A DNA stretch of 63,991 nt, the filler included, from an uncultured bacterium (lineage in GTDB: Bacteria > CAZSTA01), in the NCBI GenBank assembly GCA_964609495.1. It is 4 parts of 4 records of this genome, joined end to end, with 100 filler letters (N's around TTAATTAATTAA, not from the genome) between each part and the next. Parts side by side here need not be neighbours in the genome. Positions count along the whole stretch, not along the records: positions 1 to 18,271 come from CAZSTA010000058.1; 3 more parts are not named here. The stretch is one strand, 5' to 3'. Position numbers and translations under genes: made by a program. Below are positions 1,467-40,739 of the stretch, one piece after another (position 1 is the stretch's first letter; each line of letters starts with the position of its first letter). Under the pieces are notes generated by a model, which saw nothing but the letters and a program-made list of their open reading frames with translations, made no database searches and was not told where the DNA came from.

Positions 1467-1799
1467 TTTAACTACCTCCTTTTAATTTTTCTTGGGAAAT
1501 CATAGGTCTGCTCTTACTTTAATTTTCTTATCCTTTGCAAAATCACCTCCCAAATACCAACCACATTGTAGTGACTGGTTTCACTATTAGCTCTCTATAG
1601 TCAAAGTGACAACTTAGACTATAGTTTCACTGCAATTAAAAATCATCGAACTTTTTTAGAATTTGTCCCGATTTTATAGGAGGAAGGACGAAAGTTATCT
1701 ACCTTGATATCTCTTGGAATCTACGGAGCTTATAGCGAGCGAAGTAGAGTTAGTCTCCTTAAACTCCCTAGCATCAAAATACAACTTGCCTCTCCTCTA

Positions 1800-1838
1800 T
1801 ATATTACAGAATAGAAAAAAGGAGAAAATCTTACATCG
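1800..1838 (-). promoter_or_regulatory. Putative ECF-sigma promoter, copy 1 (TGTAAG-N16-TATTCT)
   Basis: Same motif and 16-nt spacer occur four times around the ECF sigma locus; this copy points toward 150..1466. Confidence 0.6.
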
Positions 1839-2225: not shown

Positions 2226-4670
2226 CTAGGACATAGGTATAGATACCACATTTAGTAATTTCATCCACCAGATATCAGAGTAGTAATTATCACTGTGGGT
2301 AGTTACATAAGTAGATTTAGGAATGGCATAATTCCCTTCTGTATCCTTAGCATAGATGGTTACTTTGTATGTTCCCTCTTCAATGAGATTATCGTAAGTG
2401 CCAGTGTATCTTCCATCTCTATCAGGATCTTCCAACTGGATAATAGGTAAATCAATAATGGGATCTTCAGGAGGAGGTTCAACGTAAGAGGGATATTTAA
2501 TCACAGCCCAAACTGAAGCTACACCTTTATCGTCTGTAATATCAGCCCATATCTTGGCGATAGTCTTATTAATGAGATGCTGAGAGAAAGATATAGCTCC
2601 TATGAATGGTGAGTACTCCCTATAAGGACGAGTCCCCCAAGTTTTTCGAGAAGCTTTTATCCCATCACTTGCATTGCATATCCCATCTCCATTATCATCA
2701 AGTCGAGGAAGCTGATTGAGAGTGATCGCTTCCTTAGCATCAAGGTAAGAATTAAACAGAGTTTCACCAGAAACTACTCCTGAGAAGAACATATTGACAA
2801 ATATTTCCCCATCTTCCATATCAAAAGAGTCCTGATACCATTTGCAGCTGGCGATAACTATTCTTCCCTCCCTAGAGATACTATTATTCACTGAAGATAG
2901 GTATTTAGAAGGATTATCTACTATGAAACTTCCTGAGCGACAAGCTGAGATCACCACGGTTACATCATCACAGTTACTACTTGCTTCTAAACTACTCAGG
3001 TAGGAATCTAATTCTTCTACGGTAGTCGCATCTGCTGGCCCATTGGTATAGAACTCATCTACATCCCCATGATCTACTAAGATTAGATAGAAGGGGATAG
3101 CAGAATTGACTCTAGTTGAAGCCCAAGCTTCAATAGCAGATTTAAGATTAGAATCAGTTGCTAAAGCATCGATGTCATCACTGTAGTTACCATTACCATC
3201 AACATCCTGAATGAGCTTTGGATTAAGATAGAATATTCTTTCTCTAATATACCCTAGGTCTAGGAGAATATTGTAAATTCGATTAGCAGTAAGATTAGTA
3301 TTGCTAAACATAGAATCGGAGGTGTGGTGAGCTCCATTATGTCCGGCTGCGAGTATCACATAGCCAATATCTCTTGCTGGCTCTAAGAAGAAATCGAGAG
3401 GAGTTGCTTGTCTAGCTATCACCTTGATTGTCTTTGTCTGAGGGACATATTCAGATTCAAAAGCTTGAAGTGAATATGACCCTGCTTCCAAACCTGTGAT
3501 CTGATAATATCCATTTTCATCAGTCTGAACGCATAAGTCACCATACATACGGGTGGGCCCATAAGTAATGCAGACCCAAGCATCTCGAATAGGATTTCCA
3601 TTGATATCCTTGACGTATCCTTCGATGGAGCCAATTAACCCACTAGTGCTAGGTGACCAGCGAGCAACCACATTATCTATCGACCACTCAGGATCATCAG
3701 TCAACTGAACCGCATCGGTGACATGAATACCCACTCCCCTGTCATATCTTATGGTCATCACATAGATCTCGTGCTTCCATGAGTCCTCTACCGGCTCTCC
3801 AGAATCATAAGATATCTTTGCTCCATCCCCAGAATAAACACCTCCGTAGGGAGACCAAGCAGGCATCCTGTGCTCTATATTGTCCTCGAAAGTTAATCTA
3901 GTCTGATTCGTGCCATCGGGTTTGATCACATAGATCTGATACATATTATGGCTCGTCTCATGATAGGAAGCGAAAGCGATTAGATTATCAGGAGAAGGAG
4001 ACCAGGCAGGCCATATACTGCTTGAATTATTGTGGGTTAATTGAGTTTGGTTAGAGCCATCAGCATTCATCACCCAGATCTCCTCATACCCAGACCTTCT
4101 GGAGACGAAAGCGATCTTAGTTCCATCAGGAGACCAGGTGGGATTCGAATCAGTATCACTAGTAGTTGTCAGTCTAACTACATTACTTCCATCGATGTCC
4201 ATCACATAAATATCCCCTCGAGGATCATCACGATGGGAAAGGAAAGCGATCTTAGTTCCATCAGGAGAGACAGCAGGATGTGAATCCTTGACATTATTAT
4301 AGGTTAAACGGGTCTTGTTAGAGCCATCGGCATTCATCACATAGATCTCGAAAGTATTGGTGTCAATGATGGGGCCGGGACCACTAGTCGCTATATAGGC
4401 AATTTTAGAACCGTCAGGGAAATAAACAGCCTCACTATCGATCATATCCGAATAATTAGTTAGGTTAAACTTGTCAGTTCCATCAGCGTTCATCCTCCAG
4501 ATCTCAGCATCCATTAGTTGCTTTTTCTCATTAACCTCCATCCTAGTCCAAATAATCCACCCCTCCTCAGTTGAAGCGTATCCAGGCACAACAAACACTG
4601 TTAAAACCAGCACCACTATCGTGATTGTAACTGCGATATTTCTTGTTACTCTTTCGAATAAATTCTTCAT
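2226..4670 (-). CDS. Secreted PD40 beta-propeller + carboxypeptidase-regulatory-like domain + C13 (clan CD, caspase-fold) peptidase
   Basis: Signal peptide; PD40 repeats; GSIEGYVKD..G.PI.DA.V...TDENGYY.ITGL.AGSY; clan CD dyad LILVDHG (His) and VVISACRSGSF (Cys); Q.P.LDDNGDG. Confidence 0.8.
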   Translation of the reverse strand: MKNLFERVTRNIAVTITIVVLVLTVFVVPGYASTEEGWIIWTRMEVNEKKQLMDAEIWRMNADGTDKFNLTNYSDMIDSEAVYFPDGSKIAYIATSGPGPIIDTNTFEIYVMNADGSNKTRLTYNNVKDSHPAVSPDGTKIAFLSHRDDPRGDIYVMDIDGSNVVRLTTTSDTDSNPTWSPDGTKIAFVSRRSGYEEIWVMNADGSNQTQLTHNNSSSIWPAWSPSPDNLIAFASYHETSHNMYQIYVIKPDGTNQTRLTFEDNIEHRMPAWSPYGGVYSGDGAKISYDSGEPVEDSWKHEIYVMTIRYDRGVGIHVTDAVQLTDDPEWSIDNVVARWSPSTSGLIGSIEGYVKDINGNPIRDAWVCITYGPTRMYGDLCVQTDENGYYQITGLEAGSYSLQAFESEYVPQTKTIKVIARQATPLDFFLEPARDIGYVILAAGHNGAHHTSDSMFSNTNLTANRIYNILLDLGYIRERIFYLNPKLIQDVDGNGNYSDDIDALATDSNLKSAIEAWASTRVNSAIPFYLILVDHGDVDEFYTNGPADATTVEELDSYLSSLEASSNCDDVTVVISACRSGSFIVDNPSKYLSSVNNSISREGRIVIASCKWYQDSFDMEDGEIFVNMFFSGVVSGETLFNSYLDAKEAITLNQLPRLDDNGDGICNASDGIKASRKTWGTRPYREYSPFIGAISFSQHLINKTIAKIWADITDDKGVASVWAVIKYPSYVEPPPEDPIIDLPIIQLEDPDRDGRYTGTYDNLIEEGTYKVTIYAKDTEGNYAIPKSTYVTTHSDNYYSDIWWMKLLNVVSIPMS

Positions 4671-4768: not shown

Positions 4769-7700
4769 CTAAATATATCCTTCAACTTTTTTCTTCTCTC
4801 TTTCTGCTCCTAACCTCTCGAATATCTCCGAAGCATTCTTCAAATACTCATTAGCTTTCTCTTTTCTCCTCAGTTTCGAGAGGAGGATACCTGCTTCTAG
4901 ATATGTTCTTCCCAATTCATATTCGATCTTCTGAAGGCTCTCCAAACTTTCCTCAAAATGTTCTTCAGCTTTTCTATGTTCTCCCTTGAGTTGATAGAGC
5001 ATCCCCAGAGTTCTCTCCAGTCTCCCTCTATCTAAGAAGCTATCCTTATCCATAAGCTCTTCCACTTTCTGACAATATTCCTCCGCTCTCTCAAGATCAC
5101 CTAGTTCGAGATATACCTCTCCTAAACCTCGATAAGCCTCCGCTAATTTCGATGTTATTCCCTTATCCTGGGAGATCTGCTGGGCTTTAAAGTAGTTCTC
5201 CAGAGCTTTATCCAACGCTCCTTCATCACTATAAACTGTTCCCCAATTGAGATAGGATTCTATTATTGTATCAATATCCTCTATTCTTTCTCCTATCTGG
5301 AAGGCACTTTTGATGTATTCAATAGCTTTATCATCCTCTCCCTTTCCCCAATATAATAAAGCGAAGTTGTTATAGAGATTGCCAAGCAACCAGGGATCAT
5401 CTATCTGCTCCTCGCATATCTCCAAACATTTTCGGTAGTGACTCAAAGCTTCATCCCACTCCCCCTTACTCCAATAAGCTAATCCCAAGTTATTATGGGC
5501 ATGAGCTACTCTCCAGATATCATTTACTGCCTCTCTAGTCTCTAAGCAGTGAACATAATACTCGATCGCCTTACTCCAGTCTCCCTCATACCAATAAGCG
5601 ACCCCTAAGTTATTTGCGGCGATCGAGGCTCCTAAAACATCCCCAATCTCGTCTGATATCTCGAGACTCTTCTGGTGACTCTCTATCGCTAGCTTTCGCT
5701 CTCCCTTCGACCAATAAGGCCAACCTAGACGATTGTAAGCTCGAGCTTCCCCTATCCGATTCTCACTCTCGATACTGATCTGTAAGCTCCTCTTTTGATG
5801 CTCTATAGAAGCTTCCAAATCCCCTCTCTTCAAGTGAACTATCCCCAAGTCACTCTCTACAAGAGCTGTCTCAGAGGTATATCCCAATTGCTCGACTATA
5901 CTTAGATCCCGCATTAGATAGTCCACTGCCTTGTCATATTGACCCTTCTTCTCATAAATCCGACCGATACAGCCATATATCTCTGCGGCTATCTCATTAT
6001 CGAGATCATCCCCTAGATAGCTCAATGCCTTATCATATATCTTCAAGGCTTCCTCCCAATTGCCCTCTTCATCTAGGATATTGCCTAATCGTCGATAGAT
6101 TCCAGCGAGATCTCTATCCGTCTTGGCTAAAGTGAGAGCCTCCTCATAATCCCCTCTAGCAGAATCCCTATCCTCCTGAAATCTCTTGATATCACCTCTA
6201 GCCAAGAGAAGCTCTAACTTCTGCTTCTCATACTCAGTCTTATCTTCTATTTCAACGGTGAGTAACTGCTCAATACATCCTAGAGCCTTCATATAGGAGG
6301 ATATAGCTTCGGGATAGGAATAATACTTGAACGAATTATCTCCACTCATCTTCAAATAGATAACAGCCTTCGCTGGATTTCTACCGTTTAGAAAATGATA
6401 GCTTAACTCTCCTGCTCTCTCAGCTAATAATCGCTCCTGTCCCCGACAGATATTCTCCAAAGCCTCCCCTATGGCGCGATGATACAATATCTTCTGGGGA
6501 AGAGGCAAACTGTTATAAAGCACCTGTTGGGTATAAGTATGATGAAATCTATAATGAAAATCTAGAGAGAGAACACCCTCCGTCTCGAGCAGATGGATGA
6601 GTTGATAATCCTGCTCTAATTCACTTAATTTACTCAAAATACCCAACTCATCTGCCTTGAGAACAATTATCACCAGATTAGAGGTGAACTCGTTCCCGAT
6701 AACTGAAGCACACTCCAATATCCCTCGCTCCTCCCTCTTCAAAGGACTCAAGCACTCCTCGATGATCAAAGATATGCTCTCCGGAACGCTTATCTCCTCT
6801 ATCCTCTGTTTCAATCTCCAATATTCTTCCTCCTTCGCTATGCTCCCTCTTATACTGAGCAACCTAAGGGTCTCTATAATGAAGAAGGGATTACCATCAG
6901 TGAGTTGATGGAGGCGTTCGATAAAGGATCGCTCGCTCTCTAACCCCGGAAAATTCTGCTGGAGGATATCTACCATCTGTTTGGAGCCCAACCCTTTTAG
7001 CGATATCTCCGAAGAGTTAGGGAGACTCCCCAATTGTCGAAGTACTTTTGCCAAAAGGATTGAGGATTCAAGTTCCTCCTCCCGGTAGGTGCAGAGGAAC
7101 AACAAAGGAATATCCTGCGATAACTTATCAAGAAGGTAGGAGAGCAAATCGAGTGAAGTGGGATCAGCCCATTGAAGATCGTCACAGAACAGGACTAGAG
7201 GAGCATCTTTAGTCAACTCAACTACCCTCTGACTGAGATAAGAGAACATCTGATAACGTTGCTGTTCATAATCCTTTCCCCCTCCTCTTCCTTCAACCTG
7301 AAACTCTAGCTCGAATTGAGCTTGCCAGGTAGAGAATTCCCTCAGAGCCTCTCGAAAGAGAAATAGTAAGTCATTCCTGCTGATCTCGGTGCATCTCACC
7401 TTAGCCAAACGAAACTGAGGATGTTCTATCTCCAATTGAGAGAGGAATTGCTCTCCCAAAGCTGTCTTTCCAATTCCCCTCTCTCCAGAGATGAGGACAA
7501 TCTGACCTCTCCCCGCAAGTGTCTCCTTCATTTTTCGCCTCAGCAATTCGAATTCATCATCCCTACCAACTAAGCTTGGAGCTATCTCCACCTGAATCTG
7601 CTTTGTATAACTCTCAAGCTTATCTCCTCTCTCGTTCTCATAGGATATCAGGATAGACGGAAAAGTCACAGGCTCTTCACTATACACGATGGGGGTTAGT

Positions 7701-10450
7701 TCATAAGTTAATACCTTGAAGTTATGAGCTGGAATAGCTCCTCTCCAACTTATCTCCCCTCTACTGAATTCAAACCCCTTTGGAATACATACCTCAAGGG
7801 CTACTTCGAGTGCTTCTTCATTCCCTACATTTTCCATTCTTAATTCCACTTGGGAGGTAAGACCCATAATCATACGTCTGGGAGCCTCAAGTGATGCTAC
7901 TATAACCGGATCCGGTTCAACGCTTATCAGATTTATCTCTCTATGCACAAAGTCGAATTTATAATCTTGGCGAAGCTTATTCTCATAGAAGCTCCTCTCA
8001 CAGGAGACGATCATTTCACTATTAAGAAATCCCGCCTTTATCTCTCGCGTGCAAGGCCCTAGATAAAGGTGATCAACATTATTCAGTCCAGAGAAGAGGA
8101 GGAGAAACTTGTGATTTCGCAGTTGCCTCTCCAAAAATATCTCGGTGAAATTCATCCCTCCCGACTCTAGCGAGTATCTTATAAGCTCCAAAAGATTCTG
8201 CTCTCCATAAGCATCCAATTTAACTAGGATTGGAATAGGAGAGTTCTTTATACCACTGAGTAGCCTCCGTTGAGCATATTTCAAAGCTAAACATTTCAAG
8301 GCAGTATTCGTATCTACAGGGGCTCCCAATAGAACCATCCTTTTGCTCTCCTCCAGAGCTTCCTCAATTTCTTGTATCTCTGCTGAGGATATATCCTTAT
8401 CTAAAGGCGTCACAGTTACTTTTGTCCTTTCCAATCCAGAATAAATCTCTATAAGATGGGCTAGATAATCTCTATAGATATCGGGAAGAGCAATCTCGAT
8501 CGCTTCCTCCAGAGTCCTCACATATCTGATCTGGAAGGTGGAAAGACCTAGATACTTCTCCGGAATCTCTGGGGCGTTAGCATAAGGGATCACTACCACT
8601 TCTATCCCCATCTCATAAGCCACCTTTAGTTTAGCCGCAATTGAGCCTACCCTCGATATCCCCCCATCTTTTGCTACTACTCCTGTAAAAGCGAATTTGC
8701 GATCCACTGGTTCATTGTAGAAGTTGGAGATGAGTGCAATTGCTATCGTCAATCCTAGAGAATCCCCCTCATAACTGGGCTTTATGTCCTCTATCTGCCA
8801 AGATACATCATATTCCTTAGCCATTCCAAACCCCTCTTGCTCTAAGTGGAGATAAGCTGCTTCTATTGCATTCTCAACCGCTCTCTTCATAACTTCATCC
8901 TCGATCTTATTGCCAGCTCTTATCTCTCCCATACCTCTAGATACTGTAACTATAATGTCGCTTATATATCCCAGTCTAGTGCTGGGATCGACGAATAACC
9001 CCCTTGTTCTAAAACCTTTTCTCTCCTCCTCCCTAAACTCTCGAATTATCTCTAGCACCAGTCTACTTATCCTAGCAGTATTATAACCCTTAGCTTCCAG
9101 ATACTTAAAGTAAGTATTGAAAAAGACTTCCAGAGCCCTAAGGGAGGTAGAGATTGTGCTTCTCAAGTTTTCCAACTGATTTCGCTCTTCCTCAGTGAAA
9201 GGAGAGGCCTCAAGAACCGCGGGGAGGGAATCTATCTCAGTACTCTGGAGAATTGAATAAGCTCGCATAACCATCTTATGAATGCTATCTACAGTCTTGG
9301 AAGGATCAATAAGTCCTCTTACTGCCAGATGGAGATTATCTAGGACATTTTTCTGGATAGTTAACTTCTCCCGAAGCTCTTGCCACTTGCTCTCCTTCTC
9401 CTCCTTCAGATATCCCTTTAATATCTTAATACAGTTATCTAGAGTCTCTCTATCCCAGATCTCTGCTTTAGAGAGTATCTTAAATAGTTCTCTTCGGGCA
9501 GACCTTATCTCAGGAATTCTCTCGCTATCTTCGATCTTCCGCAGCAACCATCGAACTCTTCCCAGTTCCCGATTAAAGACTCTTATTCTCTTCTCGGCTG
9601 CTCTAAGTTCATATCCTATCTCTGCTTCCTCATATAGCCTCTCCTTAAGTTGGTATAGATCATTCCTCAGCATATATGCACTCTGGTATCGCTCTGCCAA
9701 CTTCTTGCTCATAGCCTTCAAGATGATCTTCTCTAAATCTTGGGGAATAGAGGGATTTAAATCGGTGGGCTTCCTTGGCTCCTCCTCGATATGGGCTATG
9801 ATAACGGCTATAAAATTGTCATAGTTAAAGGGAGGCTGTCCAGTTGAAAGCTCATAGATAACTACTCCGACTGAATAGAGATCACTGTGATGATCTACTT
9901 TCTCTCCTCGAGCTTGCTCTGATGACATATAAGCCGCTGTTCCCCTAATTTCTCCCGATTCTGTCAATTCAGGATTTCTCGTTCTAGCTAAACCAAAATC
10001 CATTACCTTAACTATTCCCTGCTCAGTCACCATAATATTATCAGGTTTTATATCCCGATGGATAATTCCTCTCTGATGGGCTTTATCTAACGCCTCGCAT
10101 ACTGCGATAGCTATATCTAATACCTGCTCTATAGGTAAAGGAGAGGTCTCCTCGAGCAACTCTCTTAATGTCTTTCCTTTCAGATACTCCATTGAGATAT
10201 AATATAGACTGTCTTCTCTATCTATATCGTAGATAGAGACTATATTGGGATGAGATAATTGAGCGATCGCTCCAGCCTCTAAATAGAAACGCTTGATATA
10301 GTTGGTATTACTGCTAAGGCTCTCTGATAACACCCTGATCGCTACCGTTCTCTCTAGCCTAGTATCATAAGCTTTGTAGACTGTGCCCATCTCTCCTTGT
10401 CCCAGCATTTCGATTATTTTATATCGTCCTCCCAAAACTTTTCCTATCAT
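4769..10450 (-). CDS. Multidomain NLR-like protein: Ser/Thr kinase-like + Lon (S16) protease + degenerate NACHT + Ig-like + STAND AAA ATPase + TPR array
   Basis: HRDIKPDN/DFG kinase motifs; EGDSLG...FTG...AAK Lon dyad (S564/K607); GERGIGKT Walker A (aa 989-996) and LFCDDLQWAD Walker B; TDGNPFFI; >10 TPRs; no TM segment seen. Confidence 0.85.
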   Translation of the reverse strand: MIGKVLGGRYKIIEMLGQGEMGTVYKAYDTRLERTVAIRVLSESLSSNTNYIKRFYLEAGAIAQLSHPNIVSIYDIDREDSLYYISMEYLKGKTLRELLEETSPLPIEQVLDIAIAVCEALDKAHQRGIIHRDIKPDNIMVTEQGIVKVMDFGLARTRNPELTESGEIRGTAAYMSSEQARGEKVDHHSDLYSVGVVIYELSTGQPPFNYDNFIAVIIAHIEEEPRKPTDLNPSIPQDLEKIILKAMSKKLAERYQSAYMLRNDLYQLKERLYEEAEIGYELRAAEKRIRVFNRELGRVRWLLRKIEDSERIPEIRSARRELFKILSKAEIWDRETLDNCIKILKGYLKEEKESKWQELREKLTIQKNVLDNLHLAVRGLIDPSKTVDSIHKMVMRAYSILQSTEIDSLPAVLEASPFTEEERNQLENLRSTISTSLRALEVFFNTYFKYLEAKGYNTARISRLVLEIIREFREEERKGFRTRGLFVDPSTRLGYISDIIVTVSRGMGEIRAGNKIEDEVMKRAVENAIEAAYLHLEQEGFGMAKEYDVSWQIEDIKPSYEGDSLGLTIAIALISNFYNEPVDRKFAFTGVVAKDGGISRVGSIAAKLKVAYEMGIEVVVIPYANAPEIPEKYLGLSTFQIRYVRTLEEAIEIALPDIYRDYLAHLIEIYSGLERTKVTVTPLDKDISSAEIQEIEEALEESKRMVLLGAPVDTNTALKCLALKYAQRRLLSGIKNSPIPILVKLDAYGEQNLLELIRYSLESGGMNFTEIFLERQLRNHKFLLLFSGLNNVDHLYLGPCTREIKAGFLNSEMIVSCERSFYENKLRQDYKFDFVHREINLISVEPDPVIVASLEAPRRMIMGLTSQVELRMENVGNEEALEVALEVCIPKGFEFSRGEISWRGAIPAHNFKVLTYELTPIVYSEEPVTFPSILISYENERGDKLESYTKQIQVEIAPSLVGRDDEFELLRRKMKETLAGRGQIVLISGERGIGKTALGEQFLSQLEIEHPQFRLAKVRCTEISRNDLLFLFREALREFSTWQAQFELEFQVEGRGGGKDYEQQRYQMFSYLSQRVVELTKDAPLVLFCDDLQWADPTSLDLLSYLLDKLSQDIPLLFLCTYREEELESSILLAKVLRQLGSLPNSSEISLKGLGSKQMVDILQQNFPGLESERSFIERLHQLTDGNPFFIIETLRLLSIRGSIAKEEEYWRLKQRIEEISVPESISLIIEECLSPLKREERGILECASVIGNEFTSNLVIIVLKADELGILSKLSELEQDYQLIHLLETEGVLSLDFHYRFHHTYTQQVLYNSLPLPQKILYHRAIGEALENICRGQERLLAERAGELSYHFLNGRNPAKAVIYLKMSGDNSFKYYSYPEAISSYMKALGCIEQLLTVEIEDKTEYEKQKLELLLARGDIKRFQEDRDSARGDYEEALTLAKTDRDLAGIYRRLGNILDEEGNWEEALKIYDKALSYLGDDLDNEIAAEIYGCIGRIYEKKGQYDKAVDYLMRDLSIVEQLGYTSETALVESDLGIVHLKRGDLEASIEHQKRSLQISIESENRIGEARAYNRLGWPYWSKGERKLAIESHQKSLEISDEIGDVLGASIAANNLGVAYWYEGDWSKAIEYYVHCLETREAVNDIWRVAHAHNNLGLAYWSKGEWDEALSHYRKCLEICEEQIDDPWLLGNLYNNFALLYWGKGEDDKAIEYIKSAFQIGERIEDIDTIIESYLNWGTVYSDEGALDKALENYFKAQQISQDKGITSKLAEAYRGLGEVYLELGDLERAEEYCQKVEELMDKDSFLDRGRLERTLGMLYQLKGEHRKAEEHFEESLESLQKIEYELGRTYLEAGILLSKLRRKEKANEYLKNASEIFERLGAEREKKKVEGYI

Positions 10451-11268
10451 CTCTTACTCTCCCCCAGAAATTTAATTTCTACCCTTAGTTCCAAAAGGGA
10501 TGATATGTCTATACCGACTTCCCTGATTAAATCACTGCTAAAGCGCGCTTCCATCACTCCCTTGAAGACCCTAACAGTCTCGGAGAGATATAACTCTGGC
10601 AGGTGGATTATTACCTCTTTATCCTCATATATCTCTTCCATATCTTCGAAACGAATGCAGAGACGCTCTTCTTCATCTATATATATATCACCCTTATACT
10701 TCCCCTCTATACTCTCAAAAGCTCTGGGAGGTTCCTCAAGCTCCTCTTCTTCACTTAAGGCAGATAATTTCAAAGGTGATGCTCTCTCGGAATCTAGGGA
10801 GGGATGTTGCCGAAGAAAACGTAATCTTACAACATTATCTCGATATCCCGGCTCAAGCTTCTCCCGTAGGCTATCTAGAAAGTCCGGTGGTGCGGCTGAC
10901 ATCTCCTCCAATTTCAGTTCCTCCTGTGAAATCTCTCTTAACCAACGAAGAGAAGCGATTGCCTCCCTACAAGACGAGCATATTCTGAGGTGAGCTTCTA
11001 CCTCCTCCTTCTCCTCTCCAGCGATTTTATCTTCAAGATATGAGATGATCTCCTCATAAGTTAAGCATCTCCAAACTCTTTCCTGATAACCAGCATCCTT
11101 CATATCTATCATCCAATCAGTCAAATCTCGATTAAATGCCAACCAATTCTTTAGTTTATCTCGACAATAAGTGCATCCGCTTATATGTTTCTTCATTTCC
11201 CTCAACTCCTCAGCATTAAGTTTAGCTTCGATATATCTGAGTATGATCTCATCCGTCAAATGTCTCAT
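10447..11268 (-). CDS. Soluble anti-sigma factor with two zf-HC2 (ZAS) domains
   Basis: HISGCTYC and HLRICSSC motifs, each preceded by a HLT/CLT.E.I..Y helix; immediately downstream of the ECF sigma; stop overlaps the next start (ATGA). Confidence 0.8.
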   Translation of the reverse strand: MRHLTDEIILRYIEAKLNAEELREMKKHISGCTYCRDKLKNWLAFNRDLTDWMIDMKDAGYQERVWRCLTYEEIISYLEDKIAGEEKEEVEAHLRICSSCREAIASLRWLREISQEELKLEEMSAAPPDFLDSLREKLEPGYRDNVVRLRFLRQHPSLDSERASPLKLSALSEEEELEEPPRAFESIEGKYKGDIYIDEEERLCIRFEDMEEIYEDKEVIIHLPELYLSETVRVFKGVMEARFSSDLIREVGIDISSLLELRVEIKFLGESKR

Positions 11269-11284
11269 CTTTACATCTCCTCCT

Positions 11285-11325
11285 TTATATAAATAGAATT
11301 GAAATAAGGGAAGAATCTTACATCA
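11285..11325 (-). promoter_or_regulatory. Putative ECF-sigma promoter, copy 2, driving anti-sigma and NLR-like genes
   Basis: TGTAAG (11322-11317, contains the sigma stop codon) - 16 nt - AATTCT - ATTTATATA, then AAGGAGG SD. Confidence 0.6.
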
Positions 11326-12754
11326 AAAAATCTTTTTCATATAAACTTTTTAATTTAGCTAGTGCTCTGGACTTCCTTGTATCATAAGCACTTCTGCTTA
11401 TACCCAACCTTTTTGCAGCCTCAAGAGGAGGTAGATCATTAAAATAACAAAGGACTGCCTCCCGTTCCCCTTCAGGTAAACTCAAAATAGCTTTATACAG
11501 CCAATCGCTGAAATCTATCTCTTCCTCTATCTCTTTGCCTATCTCTTGAATAGCTATACTATCATAAGGCTGATGTTCCTCAAACTCCAAACTTTCGATT
11601 TTGATCTTAGAGATCTCAAGTATTCCCTTTAAAACCTCTATGATAGTGCTATAATACAAAGCTGAGTTGGCGATTGATAAAATATAGTAGATGATCTCCG
11701 CAAATAATAAACTAGATAGATATTCTCTCCTTAATTTATCAATATCATCCTTCTCCATTTTTGCTCTCTGAGATGTTGTCTTAAGTCTTCCTCTAAGTGA
11801 TATTTTATCTCCCTTACATATAAATTGATCATTATTTCTTATTTGGATTAAATCTATACTACCACTGCCTCCTATTAATTTATCTAAGATATACTTCAGT
11901 CTTTGAAAAGATATATCCATGTTTTCCTTTCTTAGGATGTAGCTGATAACATATATAAGGTCCAAACGAGAAAGGAGTCTCTTCTTCAACTCAGCTATAG
12001 AAACACTTGATCCAGAATGCTTTACCTCAGCATCTAATCTCCACTTATTATCATCCTTTACATAAAAAAATCTATTTTCATTCCTCAATACTAAATTGAT
12101 TATATTGCTTTCTACTCCCCCTACAACGAAATGCTTCTGAAGTTTTCGCTTAAGTTCAGCGAAGGATAAAGCTGAACTTCTCAACAGCTTATGGATAATC
12201 TTGGTGATAGTTAGAAGCGAGCTGATCTGGGAGAATCTTTGAATAATACTAGCGAGTGCTTTCGTATCATACTTAGAGCTTCTAAATCTCCACTCAGCTA
12301 ATCCATATATCTTTCCTCTCCCTCCTGAGTAATCCCTTATGCGTTTATCGAGATTAAGGGCGGTCTTACTCTTCCTTATCAACGTGTTTAGGTAGTTATC
12401 TTTTGATATCCCGCTCCTTATAATATCCTCGACAATGCCTCGTATCCAATTTTGAAAACCCAGGTAGTCTCTACTATGAAAACTAGTTAGGTTCCCAAAA
12501 GCTTTTAGACATACATCCTGAATAATATCTTCATCGATGTCTCTTCCTCGCTCTCTTAAAAAACTACTAGCTATTCTATATATTAGATCAGCTAATATCT
12601 CTCCTATCCTCCAATCTTTACCCTCAAGATATATATCTATTAATTGTCTCAGTGATTCTTTAATCTTCCGAAGAATATCAGGGGACAAATTATCTTTTCT
12701 ATTTAGGTAAGTAACAATCAGGTGATTCAAAGTTGGGGAAAGCAAGAATAACAC
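11318..12754 (-). CDS. ECF-type sigma-70 factor with a large internal insertion
   Basis: Region 2 EDIIQDVCLKAF...F.NWIRGI; region 4 LPEGEREAVLCYF..L...EAAKRLGISRSAYDTRKSRALAKLK; adjacent ZAS anti-sigma. Confidence 0.8.
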   Translation of the reverse strand: MLFLLSPTLNHLIVTYLNRKDNLSPDILRKIKESLRQLIDIYLEGKDWRIGEILADLIYRIASSFLRERGRDIDEDIIQDVCLKAFGNLTSFHSRDYLGFQNWIRGIVEDIIRSGISKDNYLNTLIRKSKTALNLDKRIRDYSGGRGKIYGLAEWRFRSSKYDTKALASIIQRFSQISSLLTITKIIHKLLRSSALSFAELKRKLQKHFVVGGVESNIINLVLRNENRFFYVKDDNKWRLDAEVKHSGSSVSIAELKKRLLSRLDLIYVISYILRKENMDISFQRLKYILDKLIGGSGSIDLIQIRNNDQFICKGDKISLRGRLKTTSQRAKMEKDDIDKLRREYLSSLLFAEIIYYILSIANSALYYSTIIEVLKGILEISKIKIESLEFEEHQPYDSIAIQEIGKEIEEEIDFSDWLYKAILSLPEGEREAVLCYFNDLPPLEAAKRLGISRSAYDTRKSRALAKLKSLYEKDFLM

Positions 12755-13127: not shown

Positions 13128-13167
13128 GATGTAAGATTTCCTCCTTTTTTCAGTTCTTAATATATAG
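13128..13167 (+). promoter_or_regulatory. Putative ECF-sigma promoter, copy 3
   Basis: TGTAAG 13130-13135 - 16 nt - AGTTCT - TAATATATAG. Confidence 0.6.
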
Positions 13168-13229
13168 AAGGGGAAATAGTAGAGGTACTACTAGTACCCA
13201 AAGCCACCTATCCTCTGCATCTTGAGAAG

Positions 13230-13270
13230 GATGTAAGATTTTTGCTCTTTTTCTATTCTATAATATATAG
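13230..13270 (+). promoter_or_regulatory. Putative ECF-sigma promoter, copy 4
   Basis: TGTAAG 13232-13237 - 16 nt - TATTCT - ATAATATATAG; the downstream ~100 nt also resembles the leader of copy 1. Confidence 0.6.
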
Positions 13271-13374
13271 AGGGAGGAAATAAGTTGTGTTTTGGTGCTA
13301 GTGCCAATTCTCTCTTAAAAAGATTAACTCTACTTTGCTCAATATAAGCTAATTTAGATAAAGGAGGAGTCCCA

Positions 13375-16300
13375 ATGAAAACTCAAAAGAATTCAAGATT
13401 TACTAACGGGAGTGCTATGAACAGATTTTATGCAAAATTCATAGTAATCTCATTATTAATCTTGTTATCGATTTGCTTTGGCGCCTTGGAAGTTCAAGCT
13501 CAGGATTTATTACAAAGAATAGCAGACCATGTGAATCTAAATAATCCGCTAAGGATATCCGAAGATTATTACTATAATAATGAAAAATGGGTTGCATATT
13601 TTCACGGCAGTGTTCCAATTGGGCCAGGAGTCTCAGGCGGATTGACAATTACTATTGATTTAACTGACTATCTTCGAATAACTCCTGAAGGTCAGGATGA
13701 TTGGATTACTGTATGGACTGATGCTACCGTAGGAACTGGGGGTTGGAGCTTCGGGTTTGGTGCACAGAAACGTCATTTTGGTGCAAACGCTCCTGACAGT
13801 TTTGAACATCTTTTTGATTGTTCAGCTGGTTATTCAGGACCTGGCTTTAGTGCTAATGTTTTTGAAGTATCTTCATCTGGAGATAGTAAGGTAATAAATG
13901 TTAGTTTCGGACCCGAAATTCAATTTGATTTTGGATCTGGTGCAATTTGCGCGATCCATGGTATCACTTTTGAGATAAGGAGAGAAAGACTTAATAGAAT
14001 ACTATTTAATGCACTAGTTCCTGGAATACCAATGGGAAATTTTGCGTCACTTTTTGGTGAGAATTTGATATATCCTGATCCAGACAATGTATCGATTTTC
14101 GAGTGGCTATTTGGGATTCGATTTACTACGCCTTATGACCGACTCTCTGATGATCCTGAAGCTTTTCTTATAAAGGACATCATTTCCGATAAATTGGTCG
14201 TTGGTGGTGATTGGGGCACAATTAGAGTTCGAGTTAAAGTACTGGAAGGTGATTATTACTACATTAGAGTGTGGGATGATGATGGTGTTAGTGCTCCTGG
14301 ATGGAATTGGGCAAGTGTAGAATCTGGCCCAGTTTGGTTAGAGGTAGGACAAGAATATTATTTTGATTTTTGGGTAAAACCAGACGATCTAGAAGAAGAA
14401 TTTGGCTTCTGGTTGTATCAGAAGGATCTGTCTGTTGGCCCCATACATACTTGGAAAATCTTAGAAAAGATTCTATATACTTTATATGCGTTACCGAGCG
14501 ATTTTGATATCGACCCACCTGAAGTATCAAGTCATAATTATGGTACCAATCCCGAGACTAATATTTTTGTTGTTTTCAACGAAGAACTGGCAACGAAAAC
14601 ATTTACTAATTCTACGATCCTTGTTTCTGGATCATTATCGGGAATCCATATATGCTCTTTTGATTACGAACCCTCTACAAATACGATGATAATTGATCCA
14701 GAGACAAATTTCCTCGATGGCGAAACTGTCACGGTTACAATAACTAAATATATCCAAGATTTGGTCGGAAATGGTCTCGCAAGCCAGTATGAATTTAGTT
14801 TCACCATTGAGTCTGCCCCTCAACTACATTCACCACAAATATTACCATCATCTGCAGGTGATACAGATACCCACTTTAATTTTTCAATTGTTTACACAGA
14901 TTTAGATAACAATTCTCCTGATTACGTTAAAGTTGTGATTGATAGCGTAGCATATCCACTTACTTCGGCGGATACCGACTACAAAGATGGAGCAAAGTTT
15001 TCTACGCCGAGTGGCCTCATCTTTGGGAAAGGTGAACATCAATATTACTTCCGCGCTCAACAGGGTACCCATATACTTCAAGTCCCCGAAGGGACTGAAC
15101 AACTCAGTTTTTCTGTTGTCTCATCCGCTTCCTCCATTTCTCTTTCGTTAAACCCGACGAGCGTCCCAGAAGATGGAATAACTACGACGACAGCTACTGC
15201 AACAGTAACAAACAGCTTTGGCAACCCTGTTGAAGGTGAGACAGTGACCTTTAGCTCGAATGGTTTTCCGGGGACATTTAGTCAAACCCAAAAAGTAACC
15301 GGTCCCGATGGGAAGGCTTCAGTTACATTCTTGCCAGCGTCATCAGGCTCTGCTACTATCTCTGCGACAATAGCAGGCGATTTATCTGACGATACATTAG
15401 AGGTAACTGGTGGAGAATGGTCAATGTCGCCGATCAGATTTAGATACCCGCCAATAGGAAAGGGCAGTTACTATGTCTATAGAGTAAAGGTGAAACTCGA
15501 ATACGCCAATGGTGATCCAGTGCAAATGGAGAATGTTGATTTAACCTCATCAGGAGGTTACTTTTCGCTTCCCGACGCTTCAAATCATTCCGGATCTTCA
15601 TCAATTTCCGTCTATACGAACAACAATGGCATCTGGGGACAAGCTGAAGCGGATCTATGGATTCCTAATGGTGATACCTACTTTATCTCTGCTGTGAGTT
15701 CAGGTGCTTCAAGGAGCACCCGTGTCTACCTCAGCGATGGATCTGAGCAACCTGGGAGTTTTAAACCTTTCAAAACACTTAATTTTTATAATGGTATATG
15801 TGATGTAGATTGGTCAAATGATGGCAGTAAAGTCGCCGCTTTACGTGGAGGTGGTAATCCGGGTTGGGTTCGAATATGGGATACAAACGATTGGACCGAA
15901 ATAGCAACTAACACAGGAGACGATCTGTATTATGGCGGCTACTCTCTTGATTTCGATGATAGCAGTTCTTTCCTGATAGTTGCGTATGGTGGCGGTGATG
16001 TAGCTCGGATAACATCAAATGGGATCAGAGTGTGGGGTCTCGATGTTGGTGAAGCCATTTATGATGTTGATATTTCACCTAATGGAGGGAGCTTTGTTTC
16101 TGGCAGCAGTGATTGTTATTGTCGCATTCACTCAACCTTCAATGGAAACCCTATATACACATTTCCACAACTTGATAAAAAGTCATATGCTGTGGACTAC
16201 TCTCCACACGGTTATGTCGCTATAGGTTCAAACGGTGGCACAGTGAGAGTCTATAGAACTTCAAATTATTCCCTTGTTGGTGAAGACAACTTCGATCAAT

Positions 16301-18271
16301 CTGTATATGCCTTGGATTGGTCACCAGATGGCCAAAGATTAGCCATCGGTCTTAAAGATCATCTCGTAATAATTGCCAATCCTTTTAACTTTGATGATAC
16401 TCAGTTGCCGTACCTCGGGCATACGGGATACATACGTGATGTGAAGTGGTCTCCCGATGGTTCTATGATTGCAAGCGCTGCTGATGTGGATGGTATTCAT
16501 ATTTGGGATTCGTCTTCCGGGCAACCAATAACCCAATCAGATAAAAGAGATGTTAAAGCTGTGGCATGGGATCCAACTGGCAATATGTTAGCTGCTGTTG
16601 ATCCAAACTATGTTCTCATATACGCACCTTTTGATAGTGTACCGCCAATAATTTCTAATCCCTCTTGTAATCCCTCTCCCTGCGAAATCGGCGATCTATT
16701 GAGAATCAACGTTTGTGTGATTGATGATATTTTTGGTGTTCCCGGTACAGTGTCTTCTGTCGAAGCTCATATTAAGGGTCCAGGGCAAGCTCCCTCCGGA
16801 TACACAGCACAGTCATATTCTGAATACACAATACAATTATATGATGATGGTAAACACGGTGACCAGAATGCTAATGATTCGATATTCGGCGAATATTGGG
16901 ATACCTCATCTGCCCCTGAAGGCACTTATTCGATAGATTTCTATGCCGAGGATGCCAATTCAAATTTCGTTCTTTTTGAAAATATATTATCGTGTCCAGT
17001 TTTCGATTACCCTCAAATAAGTGACATTAGCCACTCTCCAACAAATCCGTCGAACACAGACTCAGTAACAGTTGAAGCCAGCATATCAGATCAATCTGGT
17101 ATCGCCTCAGCAACACTTCTATTTTCTACTGACGGCGGTTCGACTTGGAATCCTATTATTATGACAAACACAAGCGCAAGTGGGGATATTCTGCTGGCAA
17201 GTGGGAGCATTTGGCAGGGTGTTATTCCTCCTCAATCGGTCTCGGAGGTCCGGTACAAGATAGAGGCTATCGATCTATTAAATCATTCGAAGACCTCAGA
17301 GGAAAATACTTATTCAGTTAATATTACATCACCGATCCCTCCCTCCAACCTGAGCGCCACAGCGGTCTCTCAGACACAGATCAATTTGGCTTGGCAGGAT
17401 AACTCATCTGACGAGTCTGATTTCCACATCGAGCGTTCGCTGAATGGGACCTCAGACTGGGAGGAGATTGCCACCGTACCAGCCAACAGTACTAGTTATA
17501 GTGACACCAGGTTGAGTTGCAACACTACTTATCACTATCGTGTGTGCGCCCACCGGCACAGCGACGGACAGTTCTCCTCCCCCTCTAACGTCGCCAATGC
17601 CACCACAGCATCTTGCGATGTCTTGACTGCGCCCTTCTTCGACGATATGGAAAGTGGGGCTAATGGGTGGTCAGCAACTGGGTTCTGGCATCAAGTAACA
17701 CAGGGAGTCAGCCCTTATCCTGAAGCTCACAGCTCGACTCACAGTTGGTGGTATGGACAGGATGCCACAGGTAATTACGACAACGGCTCCACGAATTCTG
17801 GAGACCTGACCTCACCACCCATCTCCATCCCTGGCCCAGGTTGCGTACTACAGTTTTGGTACTGGTATAAAACGGAAGATACTTGGGATCCAAAGTGGGT
17901 GCAGATTTCATCCGATGGTGGGCCATTCATCAATGTAGTTCATATATCCGGAGAGCCAACACAGAGTTGGGTCCAAAGCCAGCCTATCGACCTCTCTGCC
18001 TATGCTGGCAGTACCATACAAGTCCGCTTCCACTTCAATACAATTGACAATCTCCAAAATGCCTTTCGTGGTTGGTACATTGATGATTTCTCTATCACCG
18101 CGCCTTCGCACTACACTTGGTATTTTGGGCAGGGATATGGAGGGAGTGGCTGGCAAACTTATGTGATGATGGTTAATCCTAGTGCTTCTTCGATAAACTA
18201 CGACGCTTACTTCTACAAGGAGGGAGGAGGAACAGTAACTGACTCTGGAATTATCAATCCCCATGCTCGAA
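13375..18271 (+). CDS. Large secreted/surface multidomain protein (Ig-like, WD40, FN3, jelly-roll, DUF5719-like C-terminal module); truncated by contig end
   Basis: Signal peptide ending VQAQ; Big_5-like I.V.FNE...I.DL.GN.L; Big_1-like ATVTN.FGNPV.GE.VTF; WD40 GHTG.IRDVKWSPDG; LYDDGKHGD.NAND motif; FN3 PSNLSATAVS..QINLAWQDNS; FFDDMESG...GWYIDD; WYFGQG module. The terminal LIN is a linker artefact. Confidence 0.8.
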
Positions 18272-18371
18272 NNNNNNNNNNNNNNNNNNNNNNNNNNNNN
18301 NNNNNNNNNNNNNNNTTAATTAATTAANNNNNNNNNNNNNNNNNNNNNNNNNNNNNNNNNNNNNNNNNNNN
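18272..18371. other. Artificial contig linker
   Basis: 44 N + TTAATTAATTAA (stops in all frames) + 44 N. Confidence 0.97.
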
Positions 18372-36538: not shown

Positions 36539-36638
36539 NNNNNNNNNNNNNNNNNNNNNNNNNNNNNNNNNNNNNNNNNNNNTTAATTAATTAANNNNNN
36601 NNNNNNNNNNNNNNNNNNNNNNNNNNNNNNNNNNNNNN
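36539..36638. other. Artificial contig linker
   Basis: N44-TTAATTAATTAA-N44. Confidence 0.97.
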
Positions 36639-37121
<483 letters not shown>

Positions 37122-37816
37122 AAGGAGTTAGCGAATGGAAGCATTCGTTAGGTCGGTAGCCGCTTTACCTGACTTCAGCACATTGTTGGACTTTCAAATG
37201 GTGATCTTTGACAAATGAATATAGTTTTGGGTAGTGCATCTTCGATAACAGATGATAGATAACGGTTACTCGAGGTCGTCAAGTTAGTAAGGGCATACGG
37301 TGGATGCCTTGGTGCTAGGAGTTGAGGAAGGGCGTGGCTAACGGCGATACGCCCTGGGGAGTTGTAAGCAAGCTTTGATCCAGGGATACCCGAATTGGGA
37401 AACCAGTTGCGATGAACTCGCAACATCGTGATCTGAACACATAGGATCACGAGAGGATACCAGGGGAATTGAAACATCTTAGTACCCTGAGGAAAGGAAA
37501 GCAAAAGCGATTCCCCCAGTAGTGGCGAGCGAAAAGGGATGAGCCTAAACCGATCTCACCTAAGAGCCTGTAGGCGTTGTGAGCTCGGGGTAGCGGGGCG
37601 TCACTGGGCTGGGCTACAGACCGGCCGAGGAGTTACAAATTCCCTTTTGATCCGAAAGGTATTGGAAAAGCCTACCATAGATGGCGATAGTCCAGTAGGA
37701 GTAGGAAGGGAACTCCTTGAGTGATGTTTCCCCAAGTACTACGGGGACCCACCCTGTAGGAATCCGGGAGAATCACCTCCTAAGGCTAAATACTACCTAG
37801 CAACCGATAGTGGAGA

Positions 37817-37847
<31 letters not shown>

Positions 37848-39150
37848 GGTTGAGGGGAGTGAAATAGTACCTGAAACCGTGTGCCTACAAGCAGTGGGAG
37901 CACTATACTGCAGCCTTTAAGGCCGCGGTAGTGTGACTGCGTGCCTGTTGAAGAATGAGCCGGCGAGTTACTAGGCGTAGCGTTAGGCTAAGCGGATTAC
38001 GCGTAACCAAAGCGAAAGCGAGTCTGAATAGGGCGACAAGTTGCGTCTAGTAGACCCGAAACCGAGTGAGCTATCCATGGCCAGGGTGAAGCGTGTGTGA
38101 CAACACGTGGAGGCCCGAACCCGTTAACGTTGAAATGTTATGGGATGAGCTGTGGATAGGAGTGAAAAGCTAAACGAACTCGGCGATAGCTGGTTCTCCC
38201 CGAAATAGCTTTAGGGCTAGCCTCGACTCGTAAGTTATGGAGGTAGAGCACTGATAGGGCTAGGGGCCTTACCAGGTTACTGAACTCTATCAAACTCCGA
38301 ATGCCATAACTTTTTAGGTCGGGAGTCAGACCGTGGGGGATAAGCCTCATAGTCAAAAGGGAAACAGCCCAAACCGTCAGCTAAGGTCCCTAAGTATAGG
38401 CTAAGTGGTAAAGGATGTGGAATTACTCAGACAACCAGGATGTTGGCTTAGAAGCAGCCATCATTGAAAGAGTGCGTAATAGCTCACTGGTCAAGCGGTT
38501 CCGCGCCGATAATTATCGGGGCTCAAGCCTATCACCGAAGCTACGGAAGTGGCCCAACCTCCGGGTTGTCCACTTGGTAGGGGAGCGTCCCATATTAGGT
38601 TGAAGGTAGACCGTAAGGACTACTGGACGAGATGGGAGTGAGAATGCCGGCATAAGTAGCGATAAGACGGGAGAGCAAACCCGTCCGCCTAAAGCCTAAG
38701 GTTTCCTGGGGAAGGTTAAACCGCCCAGGGTTAGTCGGTGCCTAAGCCGAGGACGAAAGTCGTAGGCGATGGATAACTGGTCAATATTCCAGTACCACCC
38801 TAGGATCGCTACCAGCGATGGGGTGACGCAGGAGGGCAGACCAGCGCGCGATTGGAAGTGCGCGTCTAAGCCAGTAGGAGGATCGCCCAGGCAAATCCAG
38901 GCGATCATAACTCTGAGAGGTTATAGAGAGCTCTTTTTTGAGCGAATTGGTTGATCCCACACTGACAAGAAAAGCCTCTAGTGAGATTTTAGGGTGACCG
39001 TACCGCAAACCAACACAGGTAGGCCGGGAGAGAATCCTCAGGCGCTCGAGAGAACCCTCGTTAAGGAACTCGGCAAAATGATCCCGTAACTTAGGGAGAA
39101 GGGATGCCCCATTAACGTGAACCGACTGGCTCGGGGAGCGAGAAGGGGTT

Positions 39151-39184
<34 letters not shown>

Positions 39185-39334
39185 ACACAGGTCTCTGCTA
39201 AGTCGTAAGACGATGTATAGGGGCTGACGCCTGCCCGGTGCTGGAAGGTTAAGGGGAGGGGTCAGTTCGGTCTTTTAGGCCGAGCGAAGCTCTGAACTGA
39301 AGCCCCAGTGAACGGCGGCTGTAACTATAACAGT

Positions 39335-40045: not shown

Positions 40046-40066
40046 CCTAAGGTAGCGAAATTCCTC

Positions 40067-40140
<74 letters not shown>

Positions 40141-40546
40141 TAATACTCGTGAAGATGCGAGTTACCCGCGACAGGACGGATAGACCCCGTGGAGCTTTAC
40201 TATAGCTTGATATTGAATTTTGGTGGAGCATGTGTAGCATAGGTGGGAGGCTGGGAAGGCGGATCGCCAGATTCGCTGGAGCCATCATTGAAATACCACT
40301 CTTGTTTTAGCGGAATCCTAACTTCGACCTGTGAAGCCAGGCGGAGAACAGTGTCAGGTGGGTAGTTTGACTGGGGTGGTCGCCTCCTAAAAGGTAACGG
40401 AGGCGTCCAAAGGTTCCCTCAGCGCGGTTGGCAATCGCGCCCCCAAGAGTATAAAGGCAGAAGGGAGCTTAACTGCGAGATAAACAAATCGAGCAGGTGC
40501 GAAAGCAGGGCTTAGTGACCCGACGGTTCCATGTGAGTGGGCCGGA

Positions 40547-40583
<37 letters not shown>

Positions 40584-40618
40584 AATCTTCCCCCGATAGT
40601 TCACATAGACGGGGAGGC

Positions 40619-40654
<36 letters not shown>

Positions 40655-40687
40655 CGGAGCAGGTCCCAAGGGTTTGGCTGTACTCCA

Positions 40688-40739
<52 letters not shown>

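Follow-up and report, generated by a model that had tools for sequence, protein, structure and literature searches.

How could a soluble NLR-like receptor hand its signal to a sigma factor? The question is raised by a locus in a 63,991-nucleotide stretch of DNA (the window) from an uncultured bacterium (assembly GCA_964609495.1), where genes for an ECF-type sigma factor (P0003), a ZAS anti-sigma factor (P0002) and a multidomain STAND protein (P0001) lie side by side. An earlier note, made from the sequence alone, had read the three genes as a signalling or defence system in which sensing by TPR repeats activates a Lon protease domain, the anti-sigma factor is cleaved, and the sigma factor transcribes flanking genes for secreted proteins. 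Here we report that the large protein carries a Lon proteolytic domain of the canonical kind together with an intact STAND ATPase, that a kinase domain stands at its N-terminus, and that a shared 55-nt element is found before the anti-sigma gene and two flanking genes.

The window is made of joined contigs, with blocks of N at 18272-18371, 36539-36638, 54791-54890 and 58958-58967; each large block consists of two 44-N runs separated by 12 bases. Because the N blocks separate contigs, genes past 18271 are not physically linked to the locus, and the only bases contiguous with it are those of one 18-kb contig (positions 1-18,271), which carries six genes.

Gene organization of the locus

The sigma gene, the anti-sigma gene and the gene for the 1893-residue protein are co-oriented, and both their coordinates and their strand agree with the earlier note (Table 1). 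The stop codon of the anti-sigma gene and the start codon of the large gene overlap as ATGA, as read directly at 10447-10450, and through this overlap the two genes are predicted to be translationally coupled. The absence of transmembrane segments from all three proteins was likewise borne out: no 19-residue window reaches a Kyte-Doolittle value of 1.6, the maxima being 1.29 for the large protein, 0.98 for the anti-sigma factor and 1.55 for the sigma factor (borderline, aa 348-366). A ribosome-binding site, AAGGAGG, precedes the ATG of the anti-sigma gene, and the true start of the sigma gene is likely the TTG at 12745, behind GGAGGAGGG.

The large protein contains a canonical Lon proteolytic domain

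Pfam Lon_C matches aa 495-655 of the large protein (E 3.2e-12; 46.9 bits against a cut-off of 21.1). The catalytic residues that had been proposed are all in place: GDSLG runs from residue 562 and contains Ser564, Thr589 lies at +25 and Lys607 at +43. Pairwise HMMER alignments with Lon proteases of solved structure (7p6u_A, E 7.3e-14) place Ser564 and Lys607 on the catalytic Ser/Lys dyad: 'egdslgl' is matched to 'dgpsagi', and 'siaaklkva' to 'gvkekllaa'. The Gly-x-Ser, Thr and Lys positions (aa 562, 564, 589 and 607) are nearly invariant in 14 family sequences, which speaks for active proteases.

The region also passed the fold check that the earlier note had suggested. An AlphaFold2 model of aa 280-687, for which the 14-sequence family alignment served as input, has a mean pLDDT of 82, and its residues 199-380, corresponding to aa 478-659 of the protein, adopt the fold of a Lon proteolytic domain. 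Foldseek aligns them with 3wu6_A (E 6.9e-13, TMt 0.84), and VIA-align superposes them on the catalytic domain of E. coli Lon, 1rr9_A, with a Z score of 25.3 and a root-mean-square deviation of 2.0 over 177 residues. Against CalpL (7qda_A), the CRISPR-linked Lon protease to which we return below, the same domain gives a Z score of 14.9 over 136 residues. This places the Lon domain with the canonical kind and not with the CalpL kind.

The region directly N-terminal of Lon_C (aa 280-477) is helical in the AlphaFold2 model. Pfam gives no AAA match there, unlike in the ATP-dependent LonA and LonB proteases with their unfoldase module. A lenient Pfam scan of aa 280-495 gave no significant family, and a structural search with the helical domain returned generic helical matches only (Z ≤9.0), none of them informative.

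An intact STAND ATPase and a TPR array follow the Lon domain

Further along the protein, the nucleotide-binding oligomerisation domain (NOD) of the STAND ATPase proved to be intact, as had been claimed, with the Walker A motif GERGIGKT at 989 (including Lys995), the Walker B motif DDLQWAD at 1090 and GNPFF at 1186. The long TPR array is also present; in Pfam, TPR_12 matches it in 8 stretches (E 3.7e-61) and TPR_MalT with E 6.7e-22, and the AfsR model is also among the library matches of the protein. The large protein thus has the features by which AAA_16 STAND proteins are defined, namely a P-loop NOD, an N-terminal effector part (here kinase and Lon_C) and a C-terminal repeat sensor (here TPR).

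In the stretch that separates Lon_C from the NOD, aa ~844-948 resemble repeats found in P0028 and P0066, which are BatD/DUF11/CARDB beta-sandwiches in Pfam, and aa 660-843 have no Pfam match even when E-values as high as 10 are allowed. In the latter segment, Walker-like remnants can be picked out by eye (GAPVDTNT and LLLFSGLNNVD). A degenerate NACHT domain at aa ~700-800 was considered and is not supported, the best BLAST match being to the NACHT domain of P0004 with an E-value of 0.75.

An N-terminal kinase domain lacks the β3 lysine

The kinase domain is absent from the earlier account of the protein. It resembles the kinase domains of Stk1 (4eqm_A, E 4.5e-66) and PknB (1mru_A, E 9.8e-64), and its HRD (HRDIKPDN at 131) and DFG (151) motifs are intact. 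At the position of the β3 Lys of the VAIK motif the protein has Arg39 (codon AGG); its 'vairvl' lines up with the 'vaikai' and 'vavkvl' of these two kinases. A change from Lys to Arg at this position is the classical kinase-dead change, and given Arg39 the kinase is probably inactive or weak. Four of six aligned STK-AAA_16-TPR relatives keep the β3 Lys and the other two (P0189 and P0266) have Ala; judging from these alignments, kinase domains without this residue may recur in the kinase-AAA_16 STAND class. A related remark on kinase domains, concerning other conflict systems, is found in the available part of Kaur et al. 2020 (PMC7159879).

The anti-sigma and sigma factors both depart from the usual build

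Two zf-HC2 stretches are present in the anti-sigma factor (Pfam E 4.6e-12), a doubling not mentioned before. HxxxCxxC occurs at aa 28-35 and at aa 93-100, with His3 and Cys68 each 25 residues upstream, and the candidate zinc ligands are H3/H28/C32/C35 and C68/H93/C97/C100. Both motifs are canonical by the four-ligand spacing rule of ZAS proteins. A Pro/Ser/Glu-rich linker (aa 126-185) then leads to an acidic C-terminal part (aa 186-273), which is seemingly beta-rich when its secondary structure is judged by eye. This linker and the 90-residue acidic tail, together about 150 residues, gave no significant family in a lenient Pfam scan, and the Pfam matches of the whole protein are limited to zf-HC2 and a weak Fer2_BFD. 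The protein has a pI of 4.8 and is without a hydrophobic segment. It matches RslA (3hug_B) weakly (E 0.99), and the ESM Atlas returned only sigma-like and zf-HC2-like features for the sigma and anti-sigma factors. A complex prediction of aa 1-690 of the large protein with the anti-sigma factor (score 0.00, mark 0.34) speaks neither for nor against binding.

The sigma factor matches the NCBIfam sigma70-ECF model TIGR02937 with 63 bits (cut-off 42.9), aa 36-470 corresponding to model positions 4-163 of 165. Since these residues cover only ~160 model positions, regions 2 and 4 lie ~300 residues apart, with sigma2 at ~aa 36-113 and sigma4 at ~aa 401-474. In Pfam, Sigma70_r4_2 has an E-value of 2.2e-10 and Sigma70_r2 scores 16.8 bits, below its cut-off. 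The protein thereby departs from the short sigma2-sigma4 linker of ECF (group 4) sigma factors. Within the insert we found an internal repeat (35% identity over 55 aa, E 0.007); a lenient Pfam scan of it gave no significant family and a faint winged-helix hint (WH_PARP12, E 0.055). AlphaFold2 modelled the sigma factor alone with a mean pLDDT of 37.7, and only region 4 is confident.

A 55-nt element precedes the anti-sigma gene and two flanking genes

A 55-nt two-block element is found four times, with all copies on the 18-kb contig (nhmmer E 3.4e-16 to 4.6e-13), and its next best match in the whole 64-kb window has an E-value of 1.1. The element consists of GATGTAAGATT(T/C), followed by a T-rich spacer, by TTCT and finally by TAATATATAGAGG, and the spacing from TGTAAGA to TTCT is 17 nt in 4 of 4 copies. 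This two-block layout recalls ECF promoters, for example the AAC / TC-type promoter of E. coli sigma-E.

Each of the four copies is oriented toward a downstream gene. Copies A and B stand in tandem, 102-103 nt apart, and point at the plus-strand gene that starts at 13375, while copy C fills the intergenic region between the sigma and anti-sigma genes and ends at the ribosome-binding site and start codon of the latter. Copy C is a candidate promoter of the anti-sigma and STAND genes. Copies B and D are alike over ~125 nt (leaders 13267-13374, plus strand, and 1690-1800, minus strand) in different reading frames, which suggests a conserved DNA or RNA element and not a peptide. No known RNA was found by Rfam at the motif or its leaders.

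All three proteins encoded by the flanking genes have signal-like or lipoprotein-like N-termini. The open reading frame that follows copies A and B, listed as 13375-18327, runs into the Ns (truncated, 1650 aa) and has a signal-like N-terminus; this gene and the PD40 lipoprotein gene behind copy D are candidate regulon members. The claim that the sigma factor drives the flanking secreted-protein genes finds partial support: the shared element before two of them fits it, and the promoter role of that element is what we infer. The third gene lies downstream of the STAND gene, from which its start is 98 nt away, and the two may be transcribed together. Its 814-aa product matches Peptidase_C13 with an E-value of 0.0026, and His-Gly and Ala-Cys motifs resembling those of the caspase clan can be seen by eye.

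Table 1. Genes, protein domains and copies of the 55-nt element, with positions in the window.
Feature	Position	Strand	Remarks
ECF-type sigma gene (P0003)	11318-12754	minus	478 aa
Sigma insert, ~300 aa between sigma2 and sigma4	11555-12415	minus	absent from the earlier note
Soluble anti-sigma gene (P0002)	10447-11268	minus	273 aa
Multidomain STAND protein gene (P0001)	4769-10450	minus	1893 aa
Hanks-type Ser/Thr kinase domain, aa 10-261	9668-10423	minus	Pkinase E 2e-50
Helical domain, aa 280-477	9020-9613	minus	precedes Lon_C throughout the family
Lon (S16) proteolytic domain, aa 478-659	8474-9019	minus	Lon_C; structure matches
Middle region, aa 660-948	7607-8473	minus	DUF11/CARDB-like beta-sandwich at aa ~844-948
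STAND NTPase and helical arm, to ~aa 1430	6161-7573	minus	AAA_16 at aa 960-1118, E 5.2e-26
TPR array, about aa 1431-1890	4781-6160	minus	TPR_12, TPR_MalT; presumed sensor
Element copy A	13128-13185	plus	nhmmer E 5.1e-15 or 1.7e-13 (values for A and B)
Element copy B	13230-13288	plus	nhmmer E 5.1e-15 or 1.7e-13 (values for A and B)
Element copy C (GATGTAAGATTC..TTCT..)	11266-11324	minus	nhmmer E 4.6e-13
Element copy D	1779-1837	minus	nhmmer E 3.4e-16; points at lipoprotein gene 150-1466
Big_1/Big_5/WD40/fn3 secreted protein gene	13375-18271	plus	cut by contig end
PD40 beta-propeller protein gene	150-1466	minus	PD40 E 6.6e-47; lipoprotein-like N-terminus (..VAIGC)
PD40, CarboxypepD_reg and weak Peptidase_C13 gene	2226-4670	minus	N-terminal hydrophobic segment

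Another contig of the window carries rRNA genes: the 3' part of a 16S gene (36639-37106, in three pieces), a 23S gene (37277-41027) and a 5S gene (41073-41190). The 23S gene contains a group I intron (39742-39993, 53.4 bits), which is overlapped by a 198-aa open reading frame (39373-39969).

Lon_C is a recurrent N-terminal module of STAND proteins

To place the large protein among its relatives, we searched with its helical and Lon region and with its NOD. In an exhaustive HMMER search, 967 proteins reached E ≤0.001; of these, 28 were at E ≤1e-10 and a single one at E ≤1e-30. The helical domain and Lon_C form an N-terminal module in a small metagenomic family, ten of whose best matches were scanned with Pfam. 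In 4 of these 10 (P0006, P0017, P0018 and the fragment P0004) the module is followed by NACHT or AAA_16 plus TPR repeats, and Lon_C is therefore a recurrent N-terminal module of STAND proteins. The module stands before TPR repeats alone in P0009 and occurs with RNase HII/HIII in P0008, P0010 and P0015; P0005 has three Lon_C copies, and P0013 has no further Pfam domain. Fused in this way to STAND-TPR, TPR or RNase HII/HIII partners, the family may point to a broader class of Lon proteases that are site-specific and work independently of ATP. It is absent from the papers searched.

The RNase H fusions were also seen beyond the scanned set. P0008, P0010, P0012, P0014, P0015 and P0031 (~780-800 aa) consist of the helical domain, Lon_C with Ser/Thr/Lys and a C-terminal RNase HII/HIII, and two of these proteins are annotated as 'ribonuclease HIII' by JGI. 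We know of no explanation for the fusion of Lon and RNase H.

Among 8000 scored candidates, 1703 are relatives of the NOD (aa 950-1450) at E ≤0.001. With the query set aside, the best 119 include 10 with Pkinase (PF00069), and adenylate/guanylate cyclase, SARP/BTAD and HTH domains, which were not counted exactly, are common in the same set. Based on these relatives and on the order of its domains, the protein looks like a kinase-AAA_16-TPR signalling STAND with an inserted helical and Lon_C module and an inserted beta-sandwich.

Profile searches with the Lon region found no relative in genome, metagenome or viral contigs, and tblastn gave no match in plasmids. A profile of P0006 and P0018 had one match in metagenome contigs, which was a spurious TPR match. 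Whole-genome searches with the helical and Lon region gave matches in 0 of 401, 1 of 301, 1 of 151, 0 of 101, 2 of 401 and 0 of 167 genomes, with 1532 genomes counted over all genome searches; these four are not family members, as they cover the Lon_C part only and lie in open reading frames of 772-800 aa or 1374 aa. The 1374-aa protein, from one genome (7155-11279, plus strand), is a Lon in which two AAA modules precede a Lon_C of the canonical type (E 5.5e-59), and it is unrelated to the family described here. In the literature searched, no description of a Lon-STAND fusion or of STAND-driven anti-sigma cleavage was found, and in PMC13581612, PMC7159879 and 10.1101/2022.07.19.500537, whose supplementary tables might list such architectures, the main text does not use the word 'Lon' (0 occurrences).

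A model for the locus and its alternatives

We propose a model in which the three genes would form one cytoplasmic signalling module, with the tandem-ZAS anti-sigma factor keeping the sigma factor inactive. Upon binding of a cytoplasmic cue by the TPR array, the AAA_16 NTPase would drive oligomerisation, and the N-terminal regions of neighbouring subunits, with their kinase, helical domain and Lon Ser564/Lys607, would be brought together. The Lon domain would then cut the anti-sigma factor in trans, a step that is pure conjecture, most plausibly in the Pro/Ser/Glu-rich linker at aa ~126-185. The freed sigma factor would transcribe the PD40 lipoprotein gene, the Big/WD40 surface-protein gene and the anti-sigma/STAND genes from TGTAAGA-N17-TTCT, and renewed expression of the last two would act as negative feedback. 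The build of the anti-sigma factor, with no transmembrane segment, an N-terminal sigma-binding part, a linker and a C-terminal domain, is consistent with this model. We rate its core, anti-sigma factor cleavage by a STAND-gated Lon domain with release of the sigma factor, at somewhat short of an even chance. The chain in full, from an NLR-type receptor through Lon-mediated destruction of the tandem-ZAS anti-sigma factor to an insert-bearing ECF sigma factor and a surface-protein regulon, with a pseudokinase as scaffold, is doubtful.

If true, this would be the first case of a proteolytic pathway that leads from a STAND protein to a sigma factor, and a counterpart of CalpL that does not depend on CRISPR. 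Oligomerisation of a NOD would be joined to sigma release, Lon domains would serve as STAND effectors, and the locus would represent a compact three-gene module, from sensor to promoter, that includes a candidate for the cognate promoter. Anti-sigma factors are known to undergo regulated proteolysis in membrane cascades and, in the cytoplasm, through the CRISPR-linked proteases CalpL and Craspase.

Several points weigh against this model. The locus is seen once: for aa 280-950 of the large protein and for the anti-sigma factor alike, no relative of similar length was found, the only such match being the query itself (1 of 8000 and 1 of 1867 scored candidates, respectively). No kinase is present in any of the 10 scanned Lon-family matches, Lon_C (PF05362) is found in 0 of the best 119 NOD relatives other than the query, and the fusion may be recent and idiosyncratic. 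No copy of the 55-nt element was found by nhmmer upstream of the sigma gene itself in the window, and the element could be a binding site for a different regulator, or a leader that was duplicated. The 300-residue insert makes a standard sigma/anti-sigma pairing uncertain. ZAS anti-sigma factors can respond to thiol or redox stress alone, as RsrA does, with no need of a protease, and the kinase domain offers another output.

One alternative is that the kinase is the output and phosphorylates the sigma or anti-sigma factor upon STAND activation, a mode known from Hanks kinases and some ECF sigma factors, the Lon domain serving for autoprocessing or turnover of the receptor. The strong Pkinase match with its intact HRD and DFG motifs and the recurrence of the STK-AAA_16-TPR arrangement, with PF00069 in 10 of the best 119 other NOD relatives, agree with this, and the available parts of two reports associate several ECF groups with Ser/Thr kinases (PMC7826278) and describe phosphorylation of EcfK by PknS (PMC13147305). 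However, the β3 Lys aligns to Arg39, 2 of the 6 compared STK-STAND relatives are likewise without it, and the conserved catalytic residues of the Lon domain argue that the protease is used. In addition, kinase-linked ECF groups are typically without an anti-sigma factor according to the available part of PMC7826278, whereas one is present here. We regard a kinase output as unlikely; the kinase domain with Arg39 may instead be a scaffold.

Another possibility is that the three genes are linked by regulation only. The ZAS protein would sense thiol or redox state itself, and the STAND-Lon-kinase protein would be a regulon member with unrelated targets, for example other cytoplasmic proteins that it would degrade. 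This would suit the four candidate zinc ligands at canonical spacing in both ZAS motifs, as well as copy C, which puts the anti-sigma and STAND genes under an element common to other candidate regulon genes. On the other hand, ATGA coupling is usual for proteins that act together, though it is common in operons without such a link, and the ~150 extra C-terminal residues of the anti-sigma factor, which belong to no known family, need a role. We give this explanation a small chance too.

A defence role, as put forward in the earlier note, found no support and is improbable. In such a role, as an immune analogue of CalpL that is independent of CRISPR, the protein would sense a phage protein with its TPR array, and its Lon domain would degrade host proteins (abortive infection) or free the sigma factor for a defence programme. 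The order of N-terminal effector, NOD and repeat sensor resembles Avs and bNACHT, protease effectors on defence STANDs are documented in the available part of 10.1101/2025.11.14.688446, and CalpL offers a precedent (10.1101/2024.05.08.593097, likewise available in part). However, the PADLOC matches are generic kinase models only, with none for the anti-sigma or sigma factor, and the listed NOD relatives are signalling proteins with cyclase, SARP/BTAD, HTH or kinase domains. The other genes of the contig encode secreted propeller and Ig-like proteins, its six genes include neither a defence gene nor a cas gene, and the candidate regulon is made up of surface proteins. No relative was found in viral contigs or plasmids.

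Comparison with known systems

Like class I ZAS pairs (RsrA-SigR, ChrR-SigE and RslA-SigL), the locus encodes a zf-HC2 protein with HxxxCxxC and an ECF-type sigma factor next door; unlike in those pairs, the anti-sigma factor has two ZAS modules and a 150-aa tail, and the sigma factor has a 300-aa insert. With kinase-associated ECF sigma factors (ECF43 and related groups; PknS-EcfK) it shares a Hanks kinase encoded together with an ECF sigma factor, but those systems are typically without an anti-sigma factor, and the kinase here is without the β3 Lys and lies inside a STAND-Lon protein.

Compared with signalling STANDs such as MalT, AfsR and PknK, which we take to be exemplars of its kind, the large protein has the same AAA_16 NOD with Walker motifs, the same GNPFF motif and MalT-like TPR repeats, and it differs in the two enzyme-like domains and the beta-sandwich that precede the NOD. 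Its domains place it in the AAA_16 STAND class, with a set of effectors that appears unprecedented among the relatives examined. The metagenomic proteins P0006, P0017, P0018 and P0004, which are unnamed or called just 'TPR repeat protein', also have the helical domain, Lon_C with Ser/Thr/Lys, NACHT/AAA_16 and TPR repeats. In contrast to the large protein, to which they are 25-44% identical, they have no kinase, and their NOD directly follows Lon_C.

The CalpL-CalpT-CalpS cascade of type III CRISPR is described in the available part of 10.1101/2024.05.08.593097. CalpL consists of an N-terminal domain, Lon and the cyclic-oligoadenylate sensor SAVED, and CalpT, a MazF-like and DUF2080 protein, is cut in trans by the neighbouring subunit and only within a cA4-induced filament. 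[quoted passage not shown] As in this cascade, a Lon-type Ser/Lys protease follows a helical domain and is fused to a sensor, which in CalpL works by oligomerisation, and the protease gene lies beside genes for a soluble anti-sigma factor and for a sigma factor of ECF-like type. In contrast, the sensor here is AAA_16 plus TPR, with SAVED/CARF not among the best 25 of 37 Pfam families, the anti-sigma factor is a tandem ZAS protein instead of a MazF-like and DUF2080 one, the six contig genes include no cas gene, and the large protein has an additional kinase domain and a canonical-type Lon (Z 25.3 vs 14.9). The locus thus falls outside the CalpL-CalpT-CalpS family; by analogy, it may nonetheless work like that cascade in its logic.

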